A stretch of 34,939 nt of DNA from positions 1 to 34,939 of the IMG/VR virus record IMGVR_UViG_3300007511_000065. One strand, given 5' to 3'. A model generated the notes under the pieces. That model saw nothing but the letters and a program-made list of their open reading frames with translations. It was not told where the DNA came from and made no database searches. Every line of letters starts with the position of its first letter. Within the stretch, counting starts at the first letter, position 1. Positions 1-26,063 of the stretch are shown in pieces. The position numbers and the translations under genes were made by a program. This DNA is from a virus (Duplodnaviria; Caudoviricetes).

Positions 1-687
1 AGCTGCATCTACGATTAAATCCCATTTGGCAGAATCAGTGTTACTAGATATTGGCAAACTACCACTAGCAGTATGAGCGGTATTACAAATATAAATGTTA
101 TTGTTGCCAGTATCTTTAATTAAGTCACGCTGGTCATATACTGTTGTTGCTGCCCAATTACCTTGGAAAACACCAATTTCTTGCGTAGCAACAAGGTTAC
201 CTGAAGTATCATAGGCTAATAGTTTAGATGCACGCTCAGTAGCTGTTGCTGTAATTTCTACAGTTCCGGCATCTGTTGTGGTCTTAGAAAACTTATATGA
301 CCTATCTAAAGCATCTTGGATTTCTTGCTGAATTGAGGTAAGCTTATCTAAAGCGCCTTCGTGTGTCTCAGCTGGAAAATCATCATTATCTACATAATCA
401 ACTTCTTGCGTAAGAGACGTATCCCTATAAACAACAATCTTTTCAGTAGATGCTAATGTTGAATAAGTTGATCCCGATTTAGGGAATGTTACCGTGCCGC
501 TAGCTGCACCTGCGCCTGTGACAGTATAATCTGTATTAAGAACAAGAGTCGATTCAACCCCTGTTGAATTATCAACATGGGTACATTTAATCTCTGTCTC
601 AACAGAATGCTTATAATTAAAAGTGAAAACGGTAGTGCTACCGTCACCAGTAAAGCTTTCTCTCGATATTGTTGTAGAAATAGTCAT
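1..687 (-). CDS. Tail fibre protein, N-terminal part (runs off the window)
   Basis: Not in the ORF track; hand-translated MTISTTISRESFTGDGSTTVFTFNY...DYTVTGAG...FPAETHEGALDKLT, resembling the T7 gp17-type fibre anchor. ATG at 687 overlaps the upstream TGA (ATGA); the frame is open to position 1. Confidence 0.88.
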   Translation of the reverse strand, partial: MTISTTISRESFTGDGSTTVFTFNYKHSVETEIKCTHVDNSTGVESTLVLNTDYTVTGAGAASGTVTFPKSGSTYSTLASTEKIVVYRDTSLTQEVDYVDNDDFPAETHEGALDKLTSIQQEIQDALDRSYKFSKTTTDAGTVEITATATERASKLLAYDTSGNLVATQEIGVFQGNWAATTVYDQRDLIKDTGNNNIYICNTAHTASGSLPISSNTDSAKWDLIVDAA

Positions 688-3600
688 CTATATCCTCCAC
701 CGTATTTTATAACAGAACTAGGCGGTATGTAAAACTTTTGCCCTTGGTGCTGTTTGATCCTAGATTCTAGCCTGCTTAAATACCCCGGGTTAACCAACTC
801 TTGTATATTATACAACAGAAAATAATCTAAAGCGGCTCTTGTGTAAAATAAATTTATTCCAGGGGTATTGTTCATAGCGAAGCGAACTGATCTAGCAGCC
901 GTATCTTCACCTCGAATAAATCGTGAGTATAATTCAGCAATGTCATCCATCTGACCAAAAGTAGGACCTGCCATAGTAGCTGTGAATGATCGTCCAAATC
1001 TATTGAACTCACCAAACATAAAATCTCCATAGATACCTAGACCACCACCTTGTGTGAAAGCAGCAATCCATGTTTTTGGATCATCAGGATCTCTTGGTTC
1101 TCTTCCTTTAGAAGCATCTTTAGCTGCCAAAGCCATATACCCGAATATTGTTGTTCCCAGTATTAAGTGAGATAAACCTTTAATATCACCATTGCCTTTT
1201 AACAAAGCTTCCTTAAGAGACTTAGCGCCTGCGCCATGTAATTCACGGCCAAGAGGTTTTGTTAAAACAGTTACAGGGAATGATTTAAACTGCATGATAA
1301 ATCTAAGAGCTTCACCAAGAGGAGTACCTGGTTGAGTTCCTTGCTTCATGATAGCCTGTTCTCTATCTCCAGGAGTAGGCACAGCAAAATCTACACGATC
1401 AGTAAAGTACATACGAAGAGCATCTTCAAGATCATCTTTATACTGTTGGATCTTATGTGTATGAGACTTTGGTGTAGAAGCCTTCATAAGATCTTTAATA
1501 TCAATAGCTGTTGGTAACTTATCTTTTTCAGTTACTCCTAAGCGTGTGGCAATATCATCACGTCTAGCAATAAGCTTATCAATAAGCTCCTTCTGAAGTT
1601 TCTTTTGCGTTGGACCGAATGTCTTAACCAAGATATTAATTTCTTCATCAGTAACACCCGCAACTCTTCTAGCACCGTTTATTATTTGATCTTCTGTCAG
1701 ATCACCAAAAGCATATTTGCCTTGAGAAGAGGATGGTAGGGTTTCCAATTCACCCACTTTTTTTGTAAATTTAGAGCCCTTAGGTTCCCCCATACCCCTA
1801 AACAGGAGTGCACCACCCTCATCTATATGGGTAGCTTTCCCGCCTATCATTTGAACATTATCAAAACCAGTTCCTAGAACATCCCAGTTAGCTAGCCAAG
1901 CATGAACAACAAAATCATCTTTAAGATTGGGCTCTAGTCCAATGGCTGCTCCAGCTTGCTTCATATCAACACGATCAGAAACAACACCTAGTTTTCCTTT
2001 ATCACCAACATTTGATAGATGCTTATTAAGAACACGAACACCAAGAAGCTGATATAGGCGATTAGCTAAGATTTCATTCCTAGCAACCTTATCATCTTCT
2101 GTCTTCATAAAGTATTCTTTGCCAAACTTATCCTTAAAGAAACCACCAGGACTTGAACCAGTTGCTGGCTTTTGCCCTGTAGGCGTTAAGTCACCTTTAT
2201 AAAACTTCAAGCCAGTTGCTGCCTTAGGAACAACGCCAAGGGCTTGCATGACGCTTTCATCGGAAAGTTGTCTTACTGCTTCAGGAGTAATATGTCCATC
2301 TTGATAATCTAATGATCTGATAACATTCCACTTGGCTTCATCAATATTGTACAAGCCAAAAACCCTCTGCATTTCAGGATCAAGTTGATCCCAAGGGTTT
2401 GCTTTTTGCATGAACATATGCTTTGACATCATAAGACCAGCGGCTGTCTTTTGAGAGTCAGTCCACCAGGATAACAGATTTAATCTAAAGAATCCTTGTT
2501 GTAATTTAGACATTCTTCCAGGAAGTGAATCAGTAGCACCAAATCTAGATAAGATGGTACCGATCATACCTTCAAAACCTACTCCTAAGAGATCTGCAAT
2601 TTCTCTACGCTCTGCACCAGAACGTCCTTTCATAACTCCATTAAAGGCATTTGAGTAACCTTTCAATAAGCCATGGCCTTGATAGCGTAACTCAGCCGCG
2701 TGGAAAGGAATATCAGTAATAGCTGATAATGTTGCAGCTCCAAGTTTCGCCATATTATTAACAGCACGAACGATTGCTCCACCTGACGCCATAGTCTGGT
2801 TAACAGGGATACGCGCCGAACCATCTACTTCAGCATAATAAGCATCGATGATATTTGATCGTAGCTTTTTAGTTGCTGCGTAGTTATCACGATTATCATC
2901 TAGTAATCTTTTCCTAATCTTATTAAACATTCCCTCAGGATTTGTTCCTAAGTTTTTCATAAGAGCAATGTTTCGAGCACTATGCTCTAGTCCAAAGACG
3001 ACTGATTCAGATAATCCTTGCGTACCGAACTGTCGATTATAATCATACCAATCATCAGCAGATTTAAAATGTAGAACTCGCTCTTGCGAGATTCTTTTAG
3101 CTAAATTGCTAGGACCAGTAAATGCCGCTGCATCATCTGCAGCATGACCTCCACGAGCTTTTAAATGTGTACCTGAAGTCAATGCCAAATAAGTAGCATT
3201 TAGAAACTCATCAATTTCTTTTGGATTTAATTCTTTGAATGTCTGGTCTGGATCAATATGCTTTAATGCAACTTGCTTCCATTTTTCGAAGCCAGCTTTT
3301 CTAATCTTAAACTGATCATGTGATTGACGTGTGATATAACCAGGAAGCTTTTTAATCCATGCACCAACAGAGTTTTGCTGATGAACAGCTACGTCCTGAT
3401 ATTTCTTAACAATCTTAGCGATCTCAATAGCTTCTGAACGAATACCTTTTAGATTACCATCTGTATCCATTGACCAAAGAGCTCTAGCAATATCTCGATC
3501 ATACTCTTTACTATTGAAGTGCTTTATTAGTTTAGCATTCTCTAGATCATAGAGCATTCCACCAACAAACTTACCAAAGATAGATTTACTTTGTGCACTA

Positions 3601-3947
3601 ATAGAAGCGCGTGATCCTTTAATATTACTATTCAGACCAACTAAATATGAAACTAAGCCAAGGCCTTGATTCTCAAATTGCTGAATATGCTGATACGCTT
3701 TGTTCTCAGCAACAATATTAAAGACTGCATTTCTCTTTTGTATTACTGATGCTGTTAAAAGATCATTAATAATTTCATCAGAAGCTTGTGCTAATATATC
3801 AGCTTGATTTTCTGCCGTAGCTCCAGCACCTTTTAATGACTTCGCTGCTTTAACTTTCTTCTCAAGTAAGCCTAAGATCTCAAGAGCCTCATGGTCCTTA
3901 ATATCTGTAACGACTTCCTTAATAGTGTTAATACATTCTTGTGCCAT
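684..3947 (-). CDS. Large internal virion/ejection protein with embedded PI3K/HipA-like kinase domain (aa ~587-803)
   Basis: 1087 aa, last gene before the fibre, in the position of podovirus large ejection proteins. Ala/Gly-rich helical body; internal motifs GSSPGG, YFMK, NEILA, WLANWD..DN and HIDEGG. Confidence 0.85.
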   Translation of the reverse strand: MAQECINTIKEVVTDIKDHEALEILGLLEKKVKAAKSLKGAGATAENQADILAQASDEIINDLLTASVIQKRNAVFNIVAENKAYQHIQQFENQGLGLVSYLVGLNSNIKGSRASISAQSKSIFGKFVGGMLYDLENAKLIKHFNSKEYDRDIARALWSMDTDGNLKGIRSEAIEIAKIVKKYQDVAVHQQNSVGAWIKKLPGYITRQSHDQFKIRKAGFEKWKQVALKHIDPDQTFKELNPKEIDEFLNATYLALTSGTHLKARGGHAADDAAAFTGPSNLAKRISQERVLHFKSADDWYDYNRQFGTQGLSESVVFGLEHSARNIALMKNLGTNPEGMFNKIRKRLLDDNRDNYAATKKLRSNIIDAYYAEVDGSARIPVNQTMASGGAIVRAVNNMAKLGAATLSAITDIPFHAAELRYQGHGLLKGYSNAFNGVMKGRSGAERREIADLLGVGFEGMIGTILSRFGATDSLPGRMSKLQQGFFRLNLLSWWTDSQKTAAGLMMSKHMFMQKANPWDQLDPEMQRVFGLYNIDEAKWNVIRSLDYQDGHITPEAVRQLSDESVMQALGVVPKAATGLKFYKGDLTPTGQKPATGSSPGGFFKDKFGKEYFMKTEDDKVARNEILANRLYQLLGVRVLNKHLSNVGDKGKLGVVSDRVDMKQAGAAIGLEPNLKDDFVVHAWLANWDVLGTGFDNVQMIGGKATHIDEGGALLFRGMGEPKGSKFTKKVGELETLPSSSQGKYAFGDLTEDQIINGARRVAGVTDEEINILVKTFGPTQKKLQKELIDKLIARRDDIATRLGVTEKDKLPTAIDIKDLMKASTPKSHTHKIQQYKDDLEDALRMYFTDRVDFAVPTPGDREQAIMKQGTQPGTPLGEALRFIMQFKSFPVTVLTKPLGRELHGAGAKSLKEALLKGNGDIKGLSHLILGTTIFGYMALAAKDASKGREPRDPDDPKTWIAAFTQGGGLGIYGDFMFGEFNRFGRSFTATMAGPTFGQMDDIAELYSRFIRGEDTAARSVRFAMNNTPGINLFYTRAALDYFLLYNIQELVNPGYLSRLESRIKQHQGQKFYIPPSSVIKYGGGYR

Positions 3948-5875
3948 TATACTTTACCGTTCATACACATTGAAGCAATCTTAATAGCCGAAGCCCATTT
4001 TTTTGAATCATTAATAACTGTATCCATATCATCTATCATTTTTCTTTGCTCTTTTGTTACTAAGCCTAGCCTATCATGCTCAGCTAGAATCTCTAAGAAT
4101 TCATCTAGCTTTGTTTGAGCTTGCGCTTCATCAAATTGCTTAGGAATAGTTTTTAAAATTTCACCGAAAGCTAGCGCTTGTTCGACATCAACTGATGAGA
4201 TATTTTCTGTTTTACCAGTTGCACGTAATGCAGCTGCAATATCTTCATTAGTAGCTTTCGATAAAACTCCATCATAATCTTTAGGTAATAATTGAGCCGA
4301 TATTTCATAATATTCACCTCCCGCATTTTTCCTCTTTTTTATGCTGCGAATGAAGAATGATTCATTTCGTCCAAGCATAAATTCTCTTTCGCCGTAGAAT
4401 TGACTTCTACCATGTTGTCCAGGCGACGCAGCATGATCAACAACCATTCCTTTAGTACCAGCAGGCATAGACACTTTCCAAAATGTCCTAACATGGTTAT
4501 CTGGCGTATGGTGCGACATGAAGTCTATGCCGGTTTCCCTCTTAAAAGATCCGGCAAAGAAAGTAGGTATTGCATGTTTTTGCCCAGCAACAATATCATT
4601 GATTAAACTAGCTGATAAATTCTGACCGCGGAATAAGAACATTGGTTGATCTAACGTTTGCTTTTTCGTGGCCGAATCTAATTGCTCTATTATCTTGCGT
4701 AAATGCGGATCTTTTATTTGATCAAGATCACTGCCATGCTTAGTAACTGCTTGCAAAATAGCCTTTGTAATTTCAGCATGATTATGTCCTTGCCAATAGC
4801 GTGCTGCAGCTGTTTCATCTCCTGTAAAGGTTTTCTCTTTAAAAGCTTTTGCCTTCATATCTTTTAGCCACGTTTTTATTTGTGGCCAAGAAAGTCCTTT
4901 CGTTCTTTCATGAACGTTTAGAATACCTTCAAGTTGTTTCCAGGTTTGTTCTTCTGAATAATCTTTAGCCGCAGTTGCCTCATCATCTACATGTTTTTGC
5001 ACATTAGGAACAGCTTCATCAGGTTCATTTTTAATGATAGTAATATCATCATCACCGAAAGCTATTTTAGAAGGTGCGGAATCTTGTGCTGTTAAATCAC
5101 TTAATGATTTTTTAATAACAGTATCTGCTGCTGTAACCGTCCTTCCTTCATCAACCATTTTAGTTGCCCATTGGAAAGCTTCTACTCTCTTCCTGAAAGT
5201 AGTCATACCACCCCAATCACCAAGGACTTTACCAAAAACTAGGCGTAAGCCACCGGCTAAAGTAGCTCCACCTAAAACAGAAATCATTGAATCAATGAGA
5301 CCATAATCCGCTTGCTCGCGTTGTGCAACAGCATATGTAATAGGTTCAACAGCGGAAATACCAACAAGACCTTCAGCAAAACCTCTAGAAAAACGAGCTC
5401 CCGTTATTCCCATGGTAGCACCCATTCTTACAAAGGTTTGTTCACGCGTAATAGGAATAAACATTGCTGCAACATTTAATGGATCAACTAATGATCCAAG
5501 CATTGCTGAACCAAAACGTAATGCACCGCCTCCATCAGCACGATTAATAACATGCTGTAAGCGTCGTTCATTACGTTTTTCTTCTGCTATAGCTTCTGCT
5601 AAACGTTTATTAATTGTTGGCTCTTCTTCCTCATCCCAATGAAGACCTAAATCTCTATACTTTTCATTTGCTTCACTAGTAAGCATTCTTTCGGGTTTAA
5701 CTTTTTCGATAGCATCATAACGCATCGAGCGAAGTGCAGAAAACCCTGGACCATACTTTACAGCAATATCAAACGAAGCTCCGGCGGAACGTCCACTAGA
5801 TACAGGCATTCTACTGAGTAGAGGAGAAGCCTCTATTCTAGGATCTGGAGTAAATCTATTAACTCGTGGTAGCAC
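3947..5875 (-). CDS. Internal virion/ejection protein with ADP-ribosyltransferase domain (aa ~350-531)
   Basis: N-terminal ejection-protein-like segment (GSLVDPLN, Gly/Ala-rich hydrophobic stretches). R-S-E ART motifs LFRG (R416), FFAGS (S443) and GEREF (E496/E498). GTG start coupled to the upstream stop. Confidence 0.82.
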   Translation of the reverse strand: MLPRVNRFTPDPRIEASPLLSRMPVSSGRSAGASFDIAVKYGPGFSALRSMRYDAIEKVKPERMLTSEANEKYRDLGLHWDEEEEPTINKRLAEAIAEEKRNERRLQHVINRADGGGALRFGSAMLGSLVDPLNVAAMFIPITREQTFVRMGATMGITGARFSRGFAEGLVGISAVEPITYAVAQREQADYGLIDSMISVLGGATLAGGLRLVFGKVLGDWGGMTTFRKRVEAFQWATKMVDEGRTVTAADTVIKKSLSDLTAQDSAPSKIAFGDDDITIIKNEPDEAVPNVQKHVDDEATAAKDYSEEQTWKQLEGILNVHERTKGLSWPQIKTWLKDMKAKAFKEKTFTGDETAAARYWQGHNHAEITKAILQAVTKHGSDLDQIKDPHLRKIIEQLDSATKKQTLDQPMFLFRGQNLSASLINDIVAGQKHAIPTFFAGSFKRETGIDFMSHHTPDNHVRTFWKVSMPAGTKGMVVDHAASPGQHGRSQFYGEREFMLGRNESFFIRSIKKRKNAGGEYYEISAQLLPKDYDGVLSKATNEDIAAALRATGKTENISSVDVEQALAFGEILKTIPKQFDEAQAQTKLDEFLEILAEHDRLGLVTKEQRKMIDDMDTVINDSKKWASAIKIASMCMNGKV

Positions 5876-17624: not shown

Positions 17625-17655
17625 AATATATGATCTCCGTAAGTGTATAGTTAGG

Positions 17656-17684
17656 ATTGTACCACGTCTCTATAACAATGTAAC
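17656..17684 (-). promoter_or_regulatory. Sigma70-type promoter for the packaging/structural operon
   Basis: GTTACA-17 bp-TACAAT with extended TGn, just upstream of terS. Confidence 0.6.
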
Positions 17685-17747
17685 AATAAATGCGATTAAA
17701 GATTTGATTTTTTCGAACAAAGGGTCTTGTAGCGACTAAACAGGGTT

Positions 17748-17893
17748 ATTGTTATTACTATATAGAGAACTTTTTTAATTTTTCTAAACCCCATGCAAAA
17801 TTGCCAATATGTCCAATAACCCAATAATATCCTTATATATCAATCACTTACGCATATTGGCACCCCTGTCGGTTATTGGCAACTGCCAATAAT
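17748..17893. repeat. 146-bp imperfect direct repeat, copy 1 (origin-like)
   Basis: Matches 32337-32482. AT-rich head, 4x CCAATA plus 2x TATTGG, palindrome TTATTGGCA-AC-TGCCAATAA, and IHF consensus match TATCAATCACTTA at 17838-17850. Confidence 0.9.
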
Positions 17894-17976
17894 ATTGAGC
17901 CTTTTTGTAGGTAGCCAACTATTTTTATCCGTTAGCCTTTCCAAGTCCCCCTAGTTATTTTTACTAATGCTCTTAC

Positions 17977-18125
17977 CCTCGCGCGCCGGCCTGGGGGCCC
18001 CTGCCCGCCCGTCGTCGCACACTCGCACATGCCCGCCCGCCCCTGCGCCCGTGACCGGTCCCGCGGGTACATGCTACATTGCTTATGCCAGCCGAGCTAG
18101 GTCCGGGTTGCCGCGTCAAAGCCGA
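17977..18125. other. GC-rich non-coding island (candidate packaging/terminus site; G4 motif on minus strand)
   Basis: Strongly G+C-rich against an AT-rich background; CCC-G-CCC-G-CCCC-TGCG-CCC at 18032-18050. Confidence 0.55.
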
Positions 18126-18208
18126 GAAGGAGAGTGATAGTATCAAGGCACGTTATAGCCGATGCCAGACAACTGCTGATTGTCGGAAAACAAATTGCAA
18201 AAAAAGTG

Positions 18209-18237
18209 TTTACATTGTCGGTCAACCGATGTATAAT
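18209..18237 (+). promoter_or_regulatory. Strong sigma70-type early promoter
   Basis: TTTACA-17 bp-TATAAT with an A-tract UP element; palindrome TCGGT-CA-ACCGA in the spacer. Confidence 0.85.
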
Positions 18238-18244
18238 AGCACTA

Positions 18245-18292
18245 ACGGGTGAGAAATTGGATTGACAGTTTCAAGCTCGTGGCTCTTTAACA
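18245..18292 (+). promoter_or_regulatory. Hairpin plus boxA antitermination-like element
   Basis: GCTCTTTAACA (18282-18292) matches rrn boxA and follows a possible hairpin (18245-18280) in the early leader. Confidence 0.6.
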
Positions 18293-18385
18293 ATTAGGTA
18301 TGGTATTGATTTCAATGACATTGGAGGATGTTTCATTCTCTGATTGTTGAAGATTTTTAAACGTTCTAAGAAAGGAGAATTTATC

Positions 18386-18724
18386 ATGAACGACAAAATG
18401 AAAAACAAAACCAAAGAGCAACTTGTGGCAATGATTGAAGATTTGGAAAATCAAGTTTCCGAGTTGAAGATCAAGAGAGCGAGAAATGTTAAAAAATATC
18501 GCTTGATCAACGGCAAAGTTGATAAAAAATTGCCAAAACAAGAGCTTGCTCTGATCGCTAACGCACCTGAAGATGAGGAATTTACTGGTGTCGATCTTGA
18601 GAATTTTGCAAAAGATTCTGGCGATCTGGTAACCCGTCAGCCAGAAGGTCGCATTTTCGCATGGTATCGTGCAGCGATGGTCGATGGTGGATACATTGAA
18701 GCGGTTAAGCCAGCGGTTAACTAA
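18386..18724 (+). CDS. Early protein, paralogue family member 1 (N-terminal coiled coil)
   Basis: RBS AAGGAG before ATG 18386; LPKQ...LVTRQPEGRIFAWYRAAM motif shared with 19581 and 26368. Confidence 0.85.
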   Translation: MNDKMKNKTKEQLVAMIEDLENQVSELKIKRARNVKKYRLINGKVDKKLPKQELALIANAPEDEEFTGVDLENFAKDSGDLVTRQPEGRIFAWYRAAMVDGGYIEAVKPAVN

Positions 18725-18731
18725 AAAGGTC

Positions 18732-18763
18732 AAGGGCAGTCATTTCGGTGGCTGCCCTTTTTT
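18732..18763 (+). terminator. Rho-independent terminator
   Basis: AAGGGCAGTCA-TTTCGG-TGGCTGCCCTT followed by a T-run. Confidence 0.85.
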
Positions 18764-18833
18764 GTTTCCGTCACCGGGCGCTCGAAAACTGCATAGAGTA
18801 GAGTGGAGGGCGAAGCAATTTTACGTTTAGCCG

Positions 18834-18862
18834 TTTACATTTGTCGTAAACCGATTTATAAT
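18834..18862 (+). promoter_or_regulatory. Sigma70-type early promoter 2
   Basis: TTTACA-17 bp-TATAAT; spacer TTTGTCGTAAACCGATT resembles the spacer of the 18209 promoter. Confidence 0.85.
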
Positions 18863-18937
18863 AGACTATATGAGCGCAGACCACGGTCATACTTGACTAA
18901 GCCTGATTTGGTCACAGGCATATAAAGGAGAAACGCA

Positions 18938-19072
18938 ATGGATAATCTTATTGCATGGGTAGTGTTGGCAGCCATTTTTGGTGCGTACGGCATGTGTGTT
19001 GTAACTGGACTTATTTCAAAAGAGACATTAGATGAAGCCAATGGTGTGGAAAAAACGATACTACGTCGTTGA
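18938..19072 (+). CDS. Small membrane protein (44 aa)
   Basis: Below the track cut-off. RBS AAGGAG; MDNLIAWVVLAAIFGAYGMCVVTGLISKETLDEANGVEKTILRR, one hydrophobic helix. Confidence 0.75.
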   Translation: MDNLIAWVVLAAIFGAYGMCVVTGLISKETLDEANGVEKTILRR

Positions 19073-19074
19073 TA

Positions 19075-19167
19075 ATGATGAGCGATTTCATAATACGCTC
19101 ATTAGTGATTACAGCGGTTGCTTTCAACACTGTAGTCTGGACTTGGTTAATTGAAAGCTATTGTTAA
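19075..19167 (+). CDS. Small hydrophobic peptide (30 aa)
   Basis: MMSDFIIRSLVITAVAFNTVVWTWLIESYC fills the gap between two genes; no clear RBS. Confidence 0.45.
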   Translation: MMSDFIIRSLVITAVAFNTVVWTWLIESYC

Positions 19168-19179
19168 TAGGAGAAACAA

Positions 19180-19377
19180 ATGAGAGGACGCAAGATCACT
19201 CAAGAACAGAAAGAGCAAATGATTGAATTAGCTCTTATAGATAAGACACCACGTGAGATAGTTGCGGCTGTAGGCTTGGCATACTCAACTGTGTGTACTT
19301 TTTTGAATAAGCATAAAACATCAATTGAGTTACTTCGCTCTAAGCAAGTAAAACGTTGGTGGCAATTCTGGAGATAA
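19180..19377 (+). CDS. Small HTH DNA-binding protein with KRWWQFWR tail
   Basis: RBS AGGAG; TPREIVAAVGLAYSTV is a helix-turn-helix pattern. Confidence 0.75.
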   Translation: MRGRKITQEQKEQMIELALIDKTPREIVAAVGLAYSTVCTFLNKHKTSIELLRSKQVKRWWQFWR

Positions 19378-19380
19378 GTA

Positions 19381-19584
19381 ATGGCAGCAATTACAATTGA
19401 CTCAAAGGCACCTGAGGGCAACGCCTTCATGGTGCTTGGTAAAGCTAAGTCAGTAATGAACGCTTTGGGTTATGAGCGAGATATTATCGATCAGATGATG
19501 TCAGAAGCTATGGACGGTGACTATGATCACTTGTGCCAGACCGTGGAAGAGTTCACTGATGGTTTCATGGAGATAGAAAGATGA
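19381..19584 (+). CDS. Hypothetical phage protein (acidic)
   Basis: GNAF..LG ... AM.GDYDHL pattern; tight operon packing. Confidence 0.75.
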   Translation: MAAITIDSKAPEGNAFMVLGKAKSVMNALGYERDIIDQMMSEAMDGDYDHLCQTVEEFTDGFMEIER

Positions 19585-20189
19585 CTTATGAAGCATTTGC
19601 ACTATTTAAAGACTCAGATGACTCTATCAGGAAACTGGTAGGGTTCACCCAAGCAGCACAAGGTAAAGCCTTTTGCATGGATAAGGATAATTTGTTTATA
19701 TCTACTGAAGAGCTCATTGACAAACTATCACTGGCTCAGATGGTAACAATATATAACAAGTATGCAGATAAAGAAATAAAGAAGTTTAAGGACAAAACGA
19801 CAGGGGCTGAACGCCTCTGGCATGTTCTAGAAGTATCTGCACAGCCTTCTGTATATGACAAAACCTCGGACGGTGGTGATAAATCACGAATTGAGCATAT
19901 ACCAAGACGTAAGAAGTCTGACAGGCTATACGTCTATGAGAAAGTAGATGATTTCGAGAAAGCTATTGCAGGTATGCCTAAACAAGCTAAAGATCTAGCA
20001 CATATCGTAAAAGCTGAATTACGCTCTCGTTGGACAGAGCCAGAGTTAAAGCAGGTGATACACGCTGCAGCACGCTCTGGTGCACTTAAGACGAAGCAAG
20101 ATCCTTGGCGCATATTTCAGTATTACAGAAGCCATCTTTTGAATGCTGGTATTCTACGTTTAACAACAAGATCATTGAGGGATATATAA
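19581..20189 (+). CDS. Early protein, paralogue family member 2 (shared domain at C-terminus)
   Basis: ATGA coupling; MPKQ...LKTKQDPWRIFQYYRSHL. Confidence 0.85.
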   Translation: MTYEAFALFKDSDDSIRKLVGFTQAAQGKAFCMDKDNLFISTEELIDKLSLAQMVTIYNKYADKEIKKFKDKTTGAERLWHVLEVSAQPSVYDKTSDGGDKSRIEHIPRRKKSDRLYVYEKVDDFEKAIAGMPKQAKDLAHIVKAELRSRWTEPELKQVIHAAARSGALKTKQDPWRIFQYYRSHLLNAGILRLTTRSLRDI

Positions 20190-20530
20190 TGTGGTTATAT
20201 TTTGATGATGCGTTTGTCAGTGTTGTAACACACCGAGAAGATGCTAATGTCGTCTTGGTGCGTTCACGCTGGAAAGCACATATTAATAAGCTGTTTCCTA
20301 AAGCAGTAGTTAAGTATTTGCCTAAGGCAGATTACCCATACAGAGCAGAAATTCTTAAAAAGGATTTCTCAGCTATGTTAGCCAGGAAAACAGAGGAAAT
20401 GCTGTATACAAACTTCAAGTATGCGCTTAAAGAAAAGTCTCCGGATCTCTACGAAGCAGCTTTACTGGTTTATGAAGATACCTTGTGGGGTAGAGAGATC
20501 CACGGGTGGTTGGGTAACCCTAACGTATAG
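20189..20530 (+). CDS. Hypothetical phage protein
   Basis: Start moved to ATG 20189 (TAATG overlap, GAGG RBS); MWLYFDDAFVSVV...LVRSR...DYPYRA...YTNFK. Confidence 0.8.
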   Translation: MWLYFDDAFVSVVTHREDANVVLVRSRWKAHINKLFPKAVVKYLPKADYPYRAEILKKDFSAMLARKTEEMLYTNFKYALKEKSPDLYEAALLVYEDTLWGREIHGWLGNPNV

Positions 20531-20952: not shown

Positions 20953-21112
20953 GTGTCTCACCCATTAAATATCGTGTTCCTTGCATTATAAGGTGTAAAC
21001 GCTCTCTAGCTTCGGGAAGATTACCTTCGGTTTCCAATAGTCTAAACACTAGCAAAATATCTGTATAGATAGCCTCTAGTTTCAATTGACATTCCTTGTT
21101 ATCATGTATCAT
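20906..21112 (-). CDS. Hypothetical protein
   Basis: ATGA-coupled to the polymerase stop; overlaps the nuclease gene start. Confidence 0.55.
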   Translation of the reverse strand: MIHDNKECQLKLEAIYTDILLVFRLLETEGNLPEARERLHLIMQGTRYLMGETHERERLLEQHKESVN

Positions 21113-22953
21113 TTTACATTCCCCCAGTTAGGTCCTATCTCTGCATCACAGAGAATAGGTATAGTTATTTCAGGCATACATTCCTCCATGATCTTCTTTA
21201 TCTCAGCAGCTTCTTTTAGACCCTCTATTGATAAATCTACTTCATCGTGTACTGTCAATTGTGGGGTATAACCAGCATCGTCTAATAAGACAATAGCTTT
21301 CTTCATCATATCAGCACTAGATCCTTGTATAAGAGCATTCAGTGCTTTATATGTGAAAGCGCGGCGTATCAGCGGACCATATTCTTCTAATGCCTCCTTT
21401 CTTGGTAATGGCTTATCATAACCACTATACTTCGTAGGTTCCCATAGATCAAACCTTCTCTTTCTGCCGAGGATAGTTTTTAAATATCCACGACGTGAAA
21501 CTGTGTTAGTGCAATAATCTTGCAGTCCTTTAACAAAAGGAACTTTCTCATGATATTGATGAAAGATTCTTTTAGACTCTTCAGGTGTCATACCTAATTG
21601 CTCAGTCATTCTTCTTGTGCCCATACCATAAGTCATTCCCAGGTTCAATGTCTTTGCAGTGGTTCGGTTAACGTTCGCCATCTCAGCAATCATGGTATGA
21701 TAATCTGTAGACGGGTCCTCTATAAATTGTTTTGCTGCATCTAAGGCACCTGGGAACTTTAGCAAGCTTGCGTAATGTATTGTAACACGGGGTTCTTGCT
21801 GGCTATAGTCGAATTTCCCCCATAAAGATCCTTCATCTGGAATAAATAAAGATCTTATTTGTGGTCCTATGCCATCACCACGTGCAGGTACTTGTTGTAA
21901 GTTAGGATTTGCAGAACTAAATCTACCAGAAACTGTTCCACCATCATCTCTTCGTAACTGATGGAATTGCGTGAATATTCTACCATTCTTAGAATGATCT
22001 AGAATCATGTTTTGTAGAAAAGTTCCGCGTGCTTTATTTAGTTTTCTTGTTTCTAGAATAGTAGAAGCAATCTCATGAGGGTCGCTAGCTAAAAATTGTT
22101 GGGTAAATGAGGGATTACCCTTATCGGTGGTATTATAGGGTAAACCTAAGGTCCTATAGGCCTTTTCGATACTTTTACTAGACCATATATCAATTGGATT
22201 ACCCGCTATGCGAGTCATTCGCTTAGATAATTCCTGTTCTTTAATACCCCAAGCATCATATAGTTCTTCTGTTTTATCTACATCAACGGCTACACCGCGT
22301 ATTCTCATTTTAAATAATACTGATTGCAGCTTTGACTCTAACTGAAAAAGATCCCACAAGCCTTCTTTTTTAAGCTTTTCGCGTTGTATAGCAAAGATTT
22401 TCATAGGTAAGACAGCATCTTGCTCTGCGTAAGGTCCTACATATTTACTAGGTAATTGCCACAAGCCAGCTTTAACATCTTTAATACCATAAGCATCCGC
22501 GGCTATTTTAAGCAGTTCTTCGTCTTTACTGTCTCCAAGATATTCTTCAGCAAGAGCCTGGAGGGCGAAACTTCTTTTATTTTCATCAAGTAAAGGCTCG
22601 GCTATTTGTATATCCCATAAAGGTCCACTGACGTGTATATCTTCAGTCCATAACCATTCTAGATCATATAATAAGTTTGCCCCGCATTTAGGGATATTCG
22701 TAGATAAAACTTCTTGCAGCCAGGAGACAATAACTTTCTTGTCCATATTTCCTGACTTATGACCTATAGGGAAATAGCCTACAAAACCTGTGTCTGTGGC
22801 TATGGAGACACCAGCTAAGTGTCCATCATGTCGAACACCTCCTGGTCCTAGTTTCTTTAGATTTGGATCGTTAGTTTCAGTATCTAACGATATGATTGAT
22901 GCATTAGATAAGTTCGGCAGCTCCGAAGGTGGTCTCCAGATACTCTCTGTCAT
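21109..22953 (-). CDS. polA: Family A DNA polymerase with 3'-5' exonuclease domain
   Basis: Exo SLDTET, N..YDL and YAEQDA; SGRFSS.NPNLQQVP; motif A DYSQQEPR, motif B RTTAKTLNLGMTYG, motif C VHDE. Start moved to ATG 22953 after GGAG. Confidence 0.95.
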   Translation of the reverse strand: MTESIWRPPSELPNLSNASIISLDTETNDPNLKKLGPGGVRHDGHLAGVSIATDTGFVGYFPIGHKSGNMDKKVIVSWLQEVLSTNIPKCGANLLYDLEWLWTEDIHVSGPLWDIQIAEPLLDENKRSFALQALAEEYLGDSKDEELLKIAADAYGIKDVKAGLWQLPSKYVGPYAEQDAVLPMKIFAIQREKLKKEGLWDLFQLESKLQSVLFKMRIRGVAVDVDKTEELYDAWGIKEQELSKRMTRIAGNPIDIWSSKSIEKAYRTLGLPYNTTDKGNPSFTQQFLASDPHEIASTILETRKLNKARGTFLQNMILDHSKNGRIFTQFHQLRRDDGGTVSGRFSSANPNLQQVPARGDGIGPQIRSLFIPDEGSLWGKFDYSQQEPRVTIHYASLLKFPGALDAAKQFIEDPSTDYHTMIAEMANVNRTTAKTLNLGMTYGMGTRRMTEQLGMTPEESKRIFHQYHEKVPFVKGLQDYCTNTVSRRGYLKTILGRKRRFDLWEPTKYSGYDKPLPRKEALEEYGPLIRRAFTYKALNALIQGSSADMMKKAIVLLDDAGYTPQLTVHDEVDLSIEGLKEAAEIKKIMEECMPEITIPILCDAEIGPNWGNVK

Positions 22954-23374
22954 ATTCGTTTCTCCAGTATCGTCCTGCTTTCTTCCATAATTCTTGTCCT
23001 GATGAAGGATAGTCTTCAAGAAAAATGATGCGTGTACAGGAAGTATTCAACAGTAGTTTTGTGCATGTAATACAAGGTGCTGTTGTGCAATAGCACGTCT
23101 TAATTTCGTAGACGTCTCTGCACTGTAATAAAGCATTCTGTTCTGCATGTATTGCTTCACATTCATTTAAAAAACTGCCCGAAGGCTTTTCAGCCCCCGG
23201 ACAGGGTTCTTCTATGCAATGACTCATACCAGCAGCTCCGCCATTATAACCGGTAGCAAGAACATGGTGACGCCCGCTGACAAGGACACAACCAACTTGT
23301 CTTCTTGCACAAGTACCGCGTTTAGCTACTAGTTTAGCCATTTCAAGGAAGTAGGTATCGCGATCAATCCTCAC
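22904..23374 (-). CDS. dCMP deaminase family protein
   Basis: C.RRQVG, TGYNG, HAEQNA and PC..C zinc-deaminase motifs. Confidence 0.93.
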   Translation of the reverse strand: MRIDRDTYFLEMAKLVAKRGTCARRQVGCVLVSGRHHVLATGYNGGAAGMSHCIEEPCPGAEKPSGSFLNECEAIHAEQNALLQCRDVYEIKTCYCTTAPCITCTKLLLNTSCTRIIFLEDYPSSGQELWKKAGRYWRNEYDREYLETTFGAAELI

Positions 23375-24167
23375 GAACGAAAACCTCCGTCATGAAGTTA
23401 GTAGGACATTCAATAATCCTACCATGAGCAAGACCGCGCAATTGCTCAACTAACTGACATTGTGATGTAAAATCATATGGATTAAATGGTTCGTATTCCC
23501 ATGTTCTTATTTCTGAATAGAGAACATCACCGGCTTTTTCCCAATTACGTTGATACAAATGCTGAGAACCTGCTGTTAGATATAAGTTACCTAACGTCAA
23601 ATCAGTCAAACCTCTGTTTCGCAACATTAGCATTATGTAACCAGTAAGCATAGTAAAGTTAAATACGTCATATGGCCAACCAAGCCAAGCATCACTAGAT
23701 CTCATTGTATCGTGACAGTTAATTACACCATCACGAATAGTCCATTGAATAGCAACGGTACAAGGTATGTCTTTACTAGGCCGCGGGTTAGGTCTCCATA
23801 TAGTCATTACCGCTTGTCTTGTATCGTTATCCTTTAAGAGCATATCACATACGTAATTCAATTGGTCTACTACTCGAGGGCCATATGCACCATTAAACCG
23901 CATACCATCATCACTGAATTGCTCTATCACTTTACTGTACGGAGCAATAGTTGCTACTCTGTTATCACCAGTGATGATCCATCTAGCTTCTGCTGGCATA
24001 AATTTATAGCCTAGCTTTCTCTCGCAGACAGTAACAATAGGATATTTCATATCAACAATAGAAGTATATGCAAGCTCTTCTCTTACCAGCATACCCCTTG
24101 GGTTACAGGTGGGTGCATCAAGCATTTTATTCAATAAGGCTATCCAAGCTTCATTTGCTGTTGCCAT
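23364..24167 (-). CDS. Thymidylate synthase homologue, probable dCMP hydroxymethylase/methylase
   Basis: YGPR, DTRQA, catalytic PC(136)T, RSSDAWLGWPYD(167) and SQHLY; Asp at the position of E. coli ThyA Asn177. Confidence 0.88.
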   Translation of the reverse strand: MATANEAWIALLNKMLDAPTCNPRGMLVREELAYTSIVDMKYPIVTVCERKLGYKFMPAEARWIITGDNRVATIAPYSKVIEQFSDDGMRFNGAYGPRVVDQLNYVCDMLLKDNDTRQAVMTIWRPNPRPSKDIPCTVAIQWTIRDGVINCHDTMRSSDAWLGWPYDVFNFTMLTGYIMLMLRNRGLTDLTLGNLYLTAGSQHLYQRNWEKAGDVLYSEIRTWEYEPFNPYDFTSQCQLVEQLRGLAHGRIIECPTNFMTEVFVRED

Positions 24168-24231
24168 GTTTTACCTCCTCATAATATAGGTATAACAAAA
24201 AGGAAATCCAGATGATACCAAAAACAATCAT
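24151..24231 (-). CDS. Possible 26-aa hydrophobic peptide
   Basis: MIVFGIIWISFLLYLYYEEVKHGNSK, ATGA-coupled to the kinase stop. Confidence 0.35.
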   Translation of the reverse strand: MIVFGIIWISFLLYLYYEEVKHGNSK

Positions 24232-24836
24232 TGCTGTAACCATCTTAGAGCTCCTTGGATGTTTCTAGCATCCATTGCGAATTGTTCAACTTGACCACCA
24301 TGATCTTCAATACAATAACGTAGACCATCTACTCTGTTTTGGAAACCTCCGCCACGGGTAATTCGAGCAGCAAGGCTATCACCTTTACAAGATTTATTGC
24401 CATACCACAGATCTATATAACGCTTGCAAACAGCTTCCATATTGTCATACATTTCATCTCTTGTTTCGCGCATTTCTTTATGCCGAGCAACACCCGCCTT
24501 AACTGTCTTTGGCATTGCGATGATATATAAAGCACTAGCCTGTTGAGCTTTAATGTCCATAATTTGTTCATTAAAAGTAGGATCTGACCCATCTCTATAA
24601 ACAGCTGCATAAATATTTTCACTCATCCAGAGTCTGTCAATGACAACCAAACGCGTTTTAGATGCTTCAATAGCGTCATGAAGAATACCAAGCTGATAAC
24701 TATACATATCCAAATCATCATCATAGGTAAGATGAATATACTCACTACCAGGGGATATCTGACATATCTTGTTTGCCAAGGTGGTTTTACCTGTCGCATC
24801 TGGTCCATCAATAATAATCAATCCTTTATGCTTCAT
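24228..24836 (-). CDS. P-loop nucleotide monophosphate kinase (thymidylate-kinase-like)
   Basis: IIIDGPDATGKTT Walker A and VIDR...SE.IY motif. Confidence 0.85.
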   Translation of the reverse strand: MKHKGLIIIDGPDATGKTTLANKICQISPGSEYIHLTYDDDLDMYSYQLGILHDAIEASKTRLVVIDRLWMSENIYAAVYRDGSDPTFNEQIMDIKAQQASALYIIAMPKTVKAGVARHKEMRETRDEMYDNMEAVCKRYIDLWYGNKSCKGDSLAARITRGGGFQNRVDGLRYCIEDHGGQVEQFAMDARNIQGALRWLQQ

Positions 24837-25246
24837 CGATAATCCCTCTCTTCTGCCATAAAGGCTTCCATAACAATACCTTCAATATCAGGAGATTTCC
24901 AGTCATCTGGTTTTACTACATCAAGAAGTGTACCTCGTTTAGAGTCATCAGCATTATTGGCGCGCACTTTACTCATGTTTGCTCGCTGAACTTCATCCCA
25001 ACCTTCTTGCCAAGGGAAACCCATACCGTAAGCTGTTCCCATAGCAACATAAACAAGATCGATTAATGCATCAAAGACTTCAGCATAATCCGCTTTTTCC
25101 AAGCCAGCTTCTAATTCAGCTAATTCTTCTTTAAGAAAGTTTACCCTAAATTCTTGGTAATGTTTAGATCCAAGGTCTGGTTTACCTATCTGCTTTAAAC
25201 CAAATTTTTCATGAAAAGCAATAATGTCTTTATACATATCAGCCAC
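24833..25246 (-). CDS. MazG-like all-alpha (d)NTP pyrophosphohydrolase
   Basis: FHEKFG, EELAE, DALIDLVYV..G, V..ANMSK and KP..W..P. Start is GTG 25246 (GGAGG RBS) or ATG 25237, not 25384. Confidence 0.88.
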   Translation of the reverse strand: MADMYKDIIAFHEKFGLKQIGKPDLGSKHYQEFRVNFLKEELAELEAGLEKADYAEVFDALIDLVYVAMGTAYGMGFPWQEGWDEVQRANMSKVRANNADDSKRGTLLDVVKPDDWKSPDIEGIVMEAFMAEERDYR

Positions 25247-26063
25247 GACAATCCTCCCAATGATCAGAACTAGAATAAGGTGTTTCAATACAAGACCATG
25301 GTGGGAAAATATCTGGCTTGTCCATACTTTTATGTGTAACTCTCCAAATAACATTTCGTGAATGTTCAGGAAATAATGGAGCAAACATAACGGCTAAAAA
25401 GTTCACATCATAATATTCTCTTAAAGCATCAAAAGCACCGTCAAGTTCCCATTCATATAACTTGTTTTTATAATCGGTAATAGAAGCAAAAGTTCCGTAA
25501 TGAGCCTCAATAGTAAAGCCGTGATCTTCTAACATACGACCAAAGGCTTCGTAGGTCATCTCATTGACGTGGTTTGCTGCTGCTTTACCATTAAAGCAAG
25601 GGGTAGAAATAAAAGCTACACCGTCATTAGTCAAATGTTCTTTAATAGTTTTAAGCATGCGATGAACGTGCTCAGGCTCAATATGTTCAACAACTTCAAA
25701 ACATGTAATTATATTTCGATCGTTGGGCAAAGCTAGTCCTGTAACATCACCACTAATTAATTCAATTGGAAACTTACCGGTGTGGAACATTTCAGGTACT
25801 TCCAATTTGTTTACGTCAACTCCAATATAGTCTTTTGCTATCATTCGAGATGAGTACATTGTTTTAGCTAATGGAACTTCTTTACCGCAGCCAATATCTA
25901 AAATCTTGGCATTCTTATAGCGTCCTTTAGCATTCAAATATTTGATTACATGGGTCCATCTAAGTACATGTGCAATATAATCTCTGTGAATAAACCCACG
26001 TTTTTCGGCTGTGTCTAATGACAAGTGGGTGTTGTCAATAGCCTTTCCTCTAGCATTCGCCAT
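25239..26063 (-). CDS. Class I SAM-dependent methyltransferase (small-molecule type)
   Basis: ILDIGCG, YIGVD, CFEVVEH, G...ISTP and H..E motifs; no DNA-MTase DPPY/NPPY/PC motif seen; RBS AGGAG. Confidence 0.88.
   Translation of the reverse strand: MANARGKAIDNTHLSLDTAEKRGFIHRDYIAHVLRWTHVIKYLNAKGRYKNAKILDIGCGKEVPLAKTMYSSRMIAKDYIGVDVNKLEVPEMFHTGKFPIELISGDVTGLALPNDRNIITCFEVVEHIEPEHVHRMLKTIKEHLTNDGVAFISTPCFNGKAAANHVNEMTYEAFGRMLEDHGFTIEAHYGTFASITDYKNKLYEWELDGAFDALREYYDVNFLAVMFAPLFPEHSRNVIWRVTHKSMDKPDIFPPWSCIETPYSSSDHWEDCRG

Follow-up and report, generated by a model that had tools for sequence, protein, structure and literature searches.

In T-even phages, the hydroxymethylcytosine pathway joins a dCTPase (gp56), a hydroxymethylase (gp42), a kinase (gp1), a deaminase (Cd) and a polymerase, and α- and β-glucosyltransferases are found there as well. 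Hen1 methylates the 2′-hydroxyl at the 3′ terminus of RNA, and its bacterial forms partner with Pnkp. The window described here, a stretch of 34,939 nucleotides from an uncultured HTVC010P-type podophage, carries a cassette that resembles the T-even pathway in logic but differs in the lineage of its thymidylate synthase homolog (TS), in its MazG-like dNTPase and family A DNA polymerase (PolA), and in the presence of a methyltransferase (MT) where T-even phages have glucosyltransferases. Clusters of this kind were reportedly surveyed by Iyer and colleagues in 2013.

We propose that the cassette probably replaces cytosine in the phage DNA with 5-hydroxymethylcytosine, which MT would O-methylate to give 5-methoxymethylcytosine, a predicted base. 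We also incline, a little less firmly, to the broader view that a widespread Hen1-derived phage family may have exchanged RNA termini for DNA bases as its target and would make 5-methoxymethylcytosine as a full substitution. No description of methoxymethylcytosine in DNA was found in a literature search with thin subscription coverage, in which an earlier computational mention may have been missed, and nothing was found there on the MT family or on the base composition of the cultured phage AXL3.

Organization of the Cassette

The six genes lie on the minus strand in the order MT, MazG-like pyrophosphatase, kinase, TS, dCMP deaminase and PolA, as the original prediction had it. The MazG-like and kinase genes overlap by 4 nt (ATGA) and TS and the deaminase gene by 11 nt, but a gap of 60 nt separates kinase and TS. 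MT (25239..26063) encodes a class I SAM methyltransferase of 274 amino acids, a predicted 5-hydroxymethylcytosine O-methyltransferase on the basis of Pfam (Methyltransf_23), its structural model, its HEN1 match and residue conservation. The MazG/PRA-PH-like dNTP pyrophosphohydrolase (24833..25237; 134 amino acids; PF01503, phrog_671) is likely a dCTPase, and its most likely start is the ATG at 25237, 1 nt past the MT stop, rather than the TTG at 25384. The P-loop dNMP kinase (24228..24836; 202 amino acids; phrog_761) lacks a C-terminal domain of roughly 130 amino acids present in many relatives; there the domain looks UDG-like by one weak Pfam match (E 0.009), and a PDB search with it gave no meaningful match. 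TS (23364..24167; 267 amino acids), a predicted dCMP 5-hydroxymethylase, is preceded by a GAGGAGG site. The dCMP deaminase family protein (22904..23374; 156 amino acids; PF00383, phrog_174) likely supplies dUMP for thymidylate synthesis. PolA (21109..22953; 614 amino acids; PF00476, PF01612), which includes a 3′-5′ exonuclease, most likely starts at the ATG at 22953, with GGAGA upstream and a 50-nt overlap with the deaminase gene; its identification as DpoZ was rejected (320 bits against a cut-off of 500).

The same gene order occurs in AXL3 and in two Manatee Spring genomes, and TS is present in 67 of 80 viral loci found by MT alone, the other 13 of which end near MT on one side; the order is thus not a product of chance. 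The window, which is the entire assembly, lacks a terminal repeat and probably represents an incomplete genome, from which a gene may be missing.

Residues and Class of the TS Homolog

The window TS has P135-C136-T137 in place of PCH and an Asp (D167) at the position of ThyA N177, both as originally reported. Its diagnostic residues (R117, D133, C136, T137, S157, D159, D167) place Asp at ThyA positions 143, 169 and 177, the published signature of dCMP hydroxymethylases (acidic 143, Asp169, Asp177; PMC13326640), and the combination D143/C146/S167/D169/D177 is identical to that of T2 gp42. S157 and R117 form the Ser167/Arg126 pair (ThyA numbering) that denotes a deoxy substrate (PMC5175136). The best PDB match of the window TS is the CMP hydroxymethylase MilA (E 3e-19). 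In a quick IQ-TREE tree, which has long branches, T2 gp42 falls in a five-row clade (support 99) that does not include the window TS, a separate lineage nearer MilA. These residues point to formation of 5-hydroxymethyl-dCMP from dCMP, rather than of a 5-methyl or 5-hydroxy product.

Fold and Family of the Methyltransferase

The window MT matches only Methyltransf_23/25/11/12 in Pfam, with no match there to N4/N6 or C5 DNA-methyltransferase families. Its model (pLDDT 92) shows the class I Rossmann fold, carries the SAM motifs at DIGCG (56-60) and D83, and matches HEN1 (3htx) with Z 16.9 and rmsd 2.7 over 183 aligned residues; HEN1 is also the best PDB match of a diverse MT profile (E 1.8e-13). 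HEN1 residues E796/E799/H800 align with E123/E126/H127, and H165 has the same HxxExT spacing as HEN1 H860, an alignment that crosses a gap and rests on motif spacing. Among MT representatives, E126 and H127 are each found in 148/148, E123 in 147/148 and H165 in 147/149. In HEN1 these E/E/H/H residues bind Mg2+ and substrate hydroxyls (PMC10781085). The fold itself does not fix the acceptor, because the ExxEH motif is present in UbiG too and carboxyl and N-methyltransferases, with tied Z-scores, are among the best structural matches; structure search alone, in which many class I methyltransferases tie, was set aside as a guide to the acceptor. The protein is acidic (pI 6.0), which does not favor DNA binding. 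The family comprises 329 clusters at 50% identity (E up to 1e-30), occurs in podo-, sipho- and T4-like phages, and is nearly virus-only, with three full-length matches among 185,579 prokaryote genomes. The initial label of small-molecule methyltransferase was too narrow, given that the nearest solved structure is a nucleic-acid O-methyltransferase and that in some relatives a C5-DNA-methyltransferase-like domain forms part of the same protein.

That the nearest solved relative is an RNA 2′-O-methyltransferase also suits a different reading, in which the DNA contains plain 5-hydroxymethylcytosine and MT acts elsewhere, for example in Hen1-like 2′-O-methylation of RNA ends or on a nucleotide by-product. 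We regard this as unlikely, and MT is far under the cut-off for bacterial Hen1: the model TIGR04074 (cut-off 340 bits) gives 28-42 bits for three of six MT relatives and no match for the window MT. A Pfam search of the 32 window ORFs detected no Pnkp domain. Somewhat less probable still is methylation of the modified cytosine at another atom or adduct, either at N4 of hydroxymethylcytosine or on a sugar or another group that an unrecognized enzyme attaches; N-methyltransferases are among the structural matches, but a HEN1-type site activates hydroxyls and no Pfam N4/N6 DNA-methyltransferase family is matched.

Linkage of MT and TS Across Phages

The expected co-occurrence of MT with Asp-type TS across phages was observed. 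Every TS read beside MT carries the hydroxymethylase signature (93/93 parsed and two read by eye, with 59/59 and 17/17 in further sets), all have Asp177, and no Asn177-type TS lay beside MT in the loci examined. The partner TS lineages share mutual identities of only 20-34%; one partner is 50.5% identical to T2 gp42, and some MT loci carry gp42 orthologs. Because the MTs that accompany gp42-like and 'GLGND' TS branch within those of window-type TS (SH-like 98 and 99), MT appears to have retained a hydroxymethylase partner over at least two partner swaps. An enzyme of RNA would have no reason to track hydroxymethylase-type TS over unrelated lineages. On the other hand, no TS was detected at three MT loci whose flanks each extend for about 7 kb (L510, L514, L517), and the window-type TS clade also occurs with the kinase alone in T7-like pelagiphages, both of which suit uncapped hydroxymethylcytosine. 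Constant linkage to a cytosine-type (Asp177) TS would also fit an amine-dependent site.

An RNA enzyme would likewise have no reason to alternate with a glucosyltransferase-like gene. A gene like that for T4 β-glucosyltransferase is present at 14 sister-cassette loci, 0/14 of which contain MT, and in 0/256 MT loci; these 14 loci represent about five lineages, three of the loci are one contig, and one locus (L215) carries a different Methyltransf_23 gene. The reported lack of a glycosyltransferase in the window was upheld, since none was found among its 32 ORFs (Pfam, PHROGs) or in its six frames with a profile of the β-glucosyltransferase-like family. None was found in the scanned unannotated ORFs of complete AXL3 (39 ORFs in all) and MW202510 (22 ORFs) or by the profile over both genomes, which argues against a sugar adduct; when the L120 glycosyltransferase and P0260 were each used as single-protein queries, they matched themselves only, or nothing. 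In T4-like loci sugar-nucleotide genes adjoin MT, so that a sugar acceptor is possible there, and C5-methyltransferase-like and TylF genes, which also suit another adduct, are part of some cassettes.

Restriction of AXL3 DNA and Alternative Roles of TS

AXL3 carries the cassette as a distant relative (MT 32%, TS 48% identity). Its DNA resists 35 of 37 enzymes, those 35 being G/C-site enzymes that include KpnI (PMC7504290), for which its genome has 13 sites. For nearly all enzymes the digests equal those of T4gt DNA, and they fit plain 5-hydroxymethylcytosine almost as well as a methyl-capped base. Only PdmI hints at something past plain 5-hydroxymethylcytosine: its 21 AXL3 sites are uncut and XmnI is partial on T4gt, in a comparison that spans two laboratories and enzyme sources. 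Restriction-site avoidance was dropped as support for a modified base, since similar patterns appear in genomes that lack the cassette. Over 40 MT loci (0.50; median 0.90) and in the window (one copy against 11 expected), no 6-bp palindrome is more depleted than GATATC, and EcoRV cuts T4gt DNA (PMC7653180), but the site is absent from cassette-free HTVC010P too; general palindrome avoidance is absent from three cassette genomes (medians 0.87-0.92) and also from 2/4 cassette-free controls.

The digests and residues also bear on other roles for TS. Were it a dCMP methylase of the Xp12 type, the DNA would hold 5-methylcytosine and the deaminase would convert 5-methyl-dCTP to dTTP. TS, deaminase, PRA-PH and PolA together make up the neighborhood of 5-methylcytosine-selective deaminases, in which 5/7 TS made 5-methyl-dCMP (bioRxiv 2024.12.05.627091), and a second thymidylate synthase is missing from the window. 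This is nonetheless very improbable: the Xp12 and Mallos enzymes have N143/P147 against D143/T147 in the window and lie on a separate branch of the quick tree; DHFR adjoins TS in both phages and is not annotated in the window or AXL3; KpnI cuts fully 5-methylated Xp12 DNA, but neither T4gt (PMC7653180) nor AXL3 DNA; and AXL3 encodes a separate ThyX. We give slightly less credence to an RB69-type dCMP hydroxylase, with MT making 5-methoxycytosine. Hydroxylases share the acidic 143 and Asp177, and a phenol-like 5-hydroxyl would suit a UbiG-like enzyme, but RB69 differs from the window at E143 and N169, and all tested dCMP hydroxylases carry Asn169 (PMC13326640), whereas the MT-linked TS read all carry Asp169. 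An ordinary route of thymidylate supply, from dCMP through dUMP to dTMP, which is how homologs are annotated in the AXL3 and PW916 papers, is hardly credible against Asp143 and Asp177 in TS, the ThyX of AXL3 and the resistance of its DNA to G/C-site enzymes.

Proposed Pathway and Implications

In the favored pathway to 5-methoxymethylcytosine, the MazG-like enzyme would convert dCTP to dCMP, from which TS, with methylene-tetrahydrofolate, would form 5-hydroxymethyl-dCMP. The kinase and host NDP kinase would raise this to the triphosphate for incorporation by PolA, while the deaminase would supply dUMP for a thymidylate synthase of host or phage origin. MT, with SAM and a divalent metal, would then cap the CH2OH group, the role held by glucosyltransferase in T4; we lean slightly toward capping on DNA rather than on the nucleotide. 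Residues, linkage and AXL3 digests thus support two parts of the original prediction, namely that a 5-substituted base takes the place of cytosine and that a methyltransferase is dedicated to the system. Its candidate bases can be narrowed: 5-methoxymethylcytosine is favored, 5-methoxycytosine is unlikely given a TS signature for 5-hydroxymethyl-dCMP, and N4-methylation is less likely given a HEN1-type metal site for hydroxyl methylation.

If correct, this would enlarge the DNA alphabet by one base, give hydroxymethylcytosine a third type of cap, after sugars and carbamoyl, and extend Hen1 chemistry beyond RNA. The base would block ordinary restriction enzymes, accounting for the unexplained resistance of AXL3, and would hide the hydroxymethyl or glucosyl marks sought by type IV nucleases; escape from nucleases of 5-hydroxymethylcytosine and its glucosylated form, such as CMoRE (PMC12923530), would be predicted. 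MT would be the first SAM-dependent 5-hydroxymethylcytosine O-methyltransferase and a tool for labeling that base with SAM analogs. The predicted base can be sought in cultured AXL3.

Comparison with Known Systems

The pathway to 5-carbamoyloxymethylcytosine (Yang et al., 2021; PMC8670742) has in common with the cassette a TS, a PRA-PH protein, a deaminase and a transferase that places a cap other than sugar on the 5-hydroxymethyl group; in that paper the cap donor is carbamoyl phosphate, and the word methyltransferase is absent from its main text. With HEN1/Hen1 the window MT shares the class I fold, an Arg before motif I, ExxEH, an STP motif and HxxExT, but its family is nearly virus-only and linked to cytosine-modification genes, and its predicted acceptor is a base hydroxymethyl. 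MilA, the CMP 5-hydroxymethylase of mildiomycin, has Asp at 143 and 177 like the window TS, but uses Ala176/Lys133 for ribose where the window has the deoxy-preferring Ser157/Arg117. Xp12, with 5-methylcytosine, and RB69 and DLP3, with arabinosyl-5-hydroxycytosine, likewise combine an Asp177 TS with a kinase or deaminase and replace cytosine fully; unlike the window, Xp12 has N143/P147 and a DHFR partner, and RB69 and DLP3 have N169 and arabinose genes.

Genome Context and the Six-Gene Cassette

The window, which comprises the entire assembly, is a podophage contig (34.9 kb, 39% GC) in which Pfam and PHROGs matches assign the left part to portal, capsid, and tail tube genes and the right part to replication genes, and its capsid protein is 55–62% identical to those of HTVC010P-type pelagiphages. 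Some genes are probably missing, because no terminal repeat was found in the window and complete relatives measure 40–47 kb. In the stretch separating the terminase region from the replication block (17625–20530), the contig changes to five short plus-strand ORFs (126, 65, 67, 202, and 141 aa), which have no Pfam family matches, and the GC skew flips sign. GATATC occurs once in the window vs. 11 expected; other palindromes are not avoided there, and control genomes gave a mixed result.

The minus-strand gene at 3947–5875 encodes an internal virion protein in which residues about 345–531 match an ADP-ribosyltransferase domain (PF03496, E 2e-10), with further matches to phrog_3895 and the Alt-like phrog_802; this protein may be an Alt-like enzyme that the small podophage injects for host takeover. 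The large virion protein encoded at 684–3947 (minus strand) carries a ~220-aa insertion (residues about 580–800) relative to phrog_684 (1087 vs. 840 positions), which has no match in Pfam or PDB and which, from motifs judged by eye, looks kinase-like.

Gene calls bore out the original observation of six genes, all on the minus strand, in the order SAM methyltransferase (MT; 25239–26063), MazG-like pyrophosphatase, dNMP kinase, thymidylate synthase (TS) homologue (23364–24167), dCMP deaminase, and DNA polymerase, with respective Pfam and PHROGs matches to Methyltransf_23, PRA-PH/nucleotide pyrophosphohydrolase, thymidylate kinase, thymidylate synthase, dCMP deaminase, and PolA. The PCT motif and Asp167 ascribed to the TS are likewise present. 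The genes had been described as overlapping or coupled; their junctions are tight except that 60 nt separate kinase and TS, the probable starts of the MazG-like and PolA genes being 25237 and 22953. In the proposed pathway, the TS would convert dCMP to hm-dCMP, hydroxymethylcytosine (5hmC) would then substitute for cytosine in phage DNA, and the MT would add a methyl group to its hydroxyl. We regard the substitution as very probable and lean, with moderate confidence, toward the O-methyl cap. The gene set is real and conserved, and the 5hmC core of the proposed pathway is already known; no account of the methyl cap, the MT family, or the predicted base was found in the mostly open-access literature searched, and an earlier computational mention elsewhere is possible.

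Linkage of the Methyltransferase to Hydroxymethylase-Type TS

Among 80 viral loci retrieved by MT alone, 67 contain a TS and the remaining 13 end close to the MT on one side. In a combined locus set, a TS lies beside 91 of 104 distinct MTs, a share inflated by the inclusion of loci retrieved by TS. Two more distant MT subgroups were reached by DNA patterns; a TS accompanies 57 of 65 distinct MTs of the first (80 loci with flanks, excluding 40 with 300-base flanks) and occurs in 17 of 23 loci of the second. Three of the six TS-less loci in the latter (L510, L514, and L517) have no detected TS despite ~7 kb on each side, and are either real exceptions or have a more distant TS. Every MT-neighboring TS read has Asp at ThyA positions 143, 169, and 177 (93 parsed plus two by eye, 59, and 17 in successive locus sets).

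The MT-linked TS proteins fall into lineages with 20–34% mutual identity, one of which consists of T4 gp42 orthologues (50.5% identity to T2 gp42; clade support 99) located in T4-like myophage contigs. In an MT tree (FastTree, 41 representatives), the gp42-linked and “GLGND”-linked MTs are nested among MTs of window-type TS; therefore, the MT swapped its TS partner at least twice, each time keeping a hydroxymethylase. This retention suggests that the MT is tied to the TS product rather than to a single protein or phage group.

Alternative Genes in the Cassette

The window-type TS clade does not require the MT: 67 of 189 distinct TS lack it, 32 of them with 4 kb or more of upstream sequence, mostly in T7-like pelagiphage types that have just a kinase and a TS. 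The cultured Pelagibacter phages HTVC200P (L004) and HTVC119P (L005) and ~20 T7-like contigs have a kinase together with a TS that bears the dCMP hydroxymethylase signature and, in both cultured phages, is annotated as thymidylate synthase; such phages may contain uncapped 5hmC DNA.

In 14 loci, representing about five lineages, the MT is replaced by a gene that has T4 beta-glucosyltransferase among its nearest Atlas clusters (feature score 0.96, TM 0.71). The two did not co-occur, with MT in 0/14 glucosyltransferase-like loci and the glucosyltransferase-like gene in 0/256 MT loci; one of the lineages has an unrelated methyltransferase. The beta-glucosyltransferase-like family represented by L120:1167-2174 has no Pfam match and is related to proteins of T4-like Aeromonas phages and of Gordonia phages. 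A cassette with a carbamoyltransferase has also been described (PMC8670742), and taken together the three genes read as providing alternative caps for one hydroxyl.

Other cassette members vary as well. A C5-DNA-methyltransferase-like gene (PF00145) recurs in hydroxymethylase cassettes (L128:8867-9901, L132:9135-10184, L215:5978-7027, L498, L511, and L517), adjoining or fused to the MT, and is also found in glycosyltransferase-type cassettes. The kinase of L007:7244-8236 and ~200 other loci has an extra C-terminal domain (~130 aa) with a conserved HPxYxKRF motif and a weak UDG-superfamily match; it is absent from the window kinase (24228–24836), and the window holds no separate copy. The dNTPase position is occupied in some relatives by a trimeric dUTPase-family or Nudix gene (L100:4522-4986, L078:1497-2060).

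The Methyltransferase Family and Its Predicted Active Site

The MT family (1025 proteins; 329 representatives at E up to 1e-30) is almost restricted to viruses. The predicted structure (pLDDT 92) has a class I fold, and its leading structural matches include ChlM, SmtA, toxoflavin N-methyltransferase, and HEN1, with scores too close to single one out. A profile from 67 diverse members places HEN1 first in PDB (E 1.8e-13), followed by UbiG and further Hen1 proteins. E123, E126, and H127 align with HEN1 E796, E799, and H800, and H165, aligned across a gap, lies in an HxxExT spacing like that of the Hen1 motif; over 150 representatives, these residues are conserved in 147/148, 148/148, 148/148, and 147/149, respectively. 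The four HEN1 residues hold Mg2+ together with substrate hydroxyls (PMC10781085), and the MT may work like a metal-assisted hydroxyl methyltransferase. By the family cut-off, it does not belong to the Hen1 family itself.

Action on DNA is suggested by fusions (L498, L511, and L517) in which the MT either precedes or follows the C5-DNA-methyltransferase-like domain, by occupancy of the glucosyltransferase slot, and by kinship with HEN1. The fusion of an MT to a MazG-like domain in one protein (P0248) and the MT pI of 6.0 point instead to the nucleotide pool.

Comparison With Known Enzymes and Modified DNAs

Both cultured phages AXL3 and PW916 have the cassette. AXL3 encodes ThyX, and no glycosyltransferase was detected in its genome; 2 of 37 enzymes cut its DNA, both at A/T sites (PMC7504290). 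PMC7653180 reports that KpnI fully cuts 5-methylcytosine DNA and does not cut T4gt (unglucosylated 5hmC) DNA. The 13 KpnI sites of AXL3 stayed uncut, which argues against plain 5-methylcytosine. PMC7653180 gives XmnI as cutting T4gt DNA partially and T4 DNA not at all, and its isoschizomer PdmI left 21 AXL3 sites uncut, a weak hint that this DNA may carry more than 5hmC. AhdI, complete in the text and partial in the table of PMC7653180, was given no weight.

The top PDB match of the window TS is the CMP hydroxymethylase MilA (E 3e-19), with every ThyA ranking lower. Three positions are described as diagnostic (PMC13326640): Asp177 marks the use of dCMP, non-methyl products go with an acidic residue at 143, and hydroxylases have Asn169. 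These are correlations over few assayed enzymes, none from the window TS clade. A further point against hm-dCMP is that 5/7 assayed deaminase-linked TS made 5-methyl-dCMP (bioRxiv 2024.12.05.627091). We nevertheless consider hm-dCMP its likely product, because its residues D133, C136, T137, S157, D159, and D167 are identical to those of T2 gp42, and Ser157 with Arg117 forms a pair preferring the deoxy substrate (PMC5175136), while it has D133/T137 where Xp12 and Mallos TS, with their neighboring DHFR, have N143/P147, and D133 and D159 where RB69 gp48 has E143/N169.
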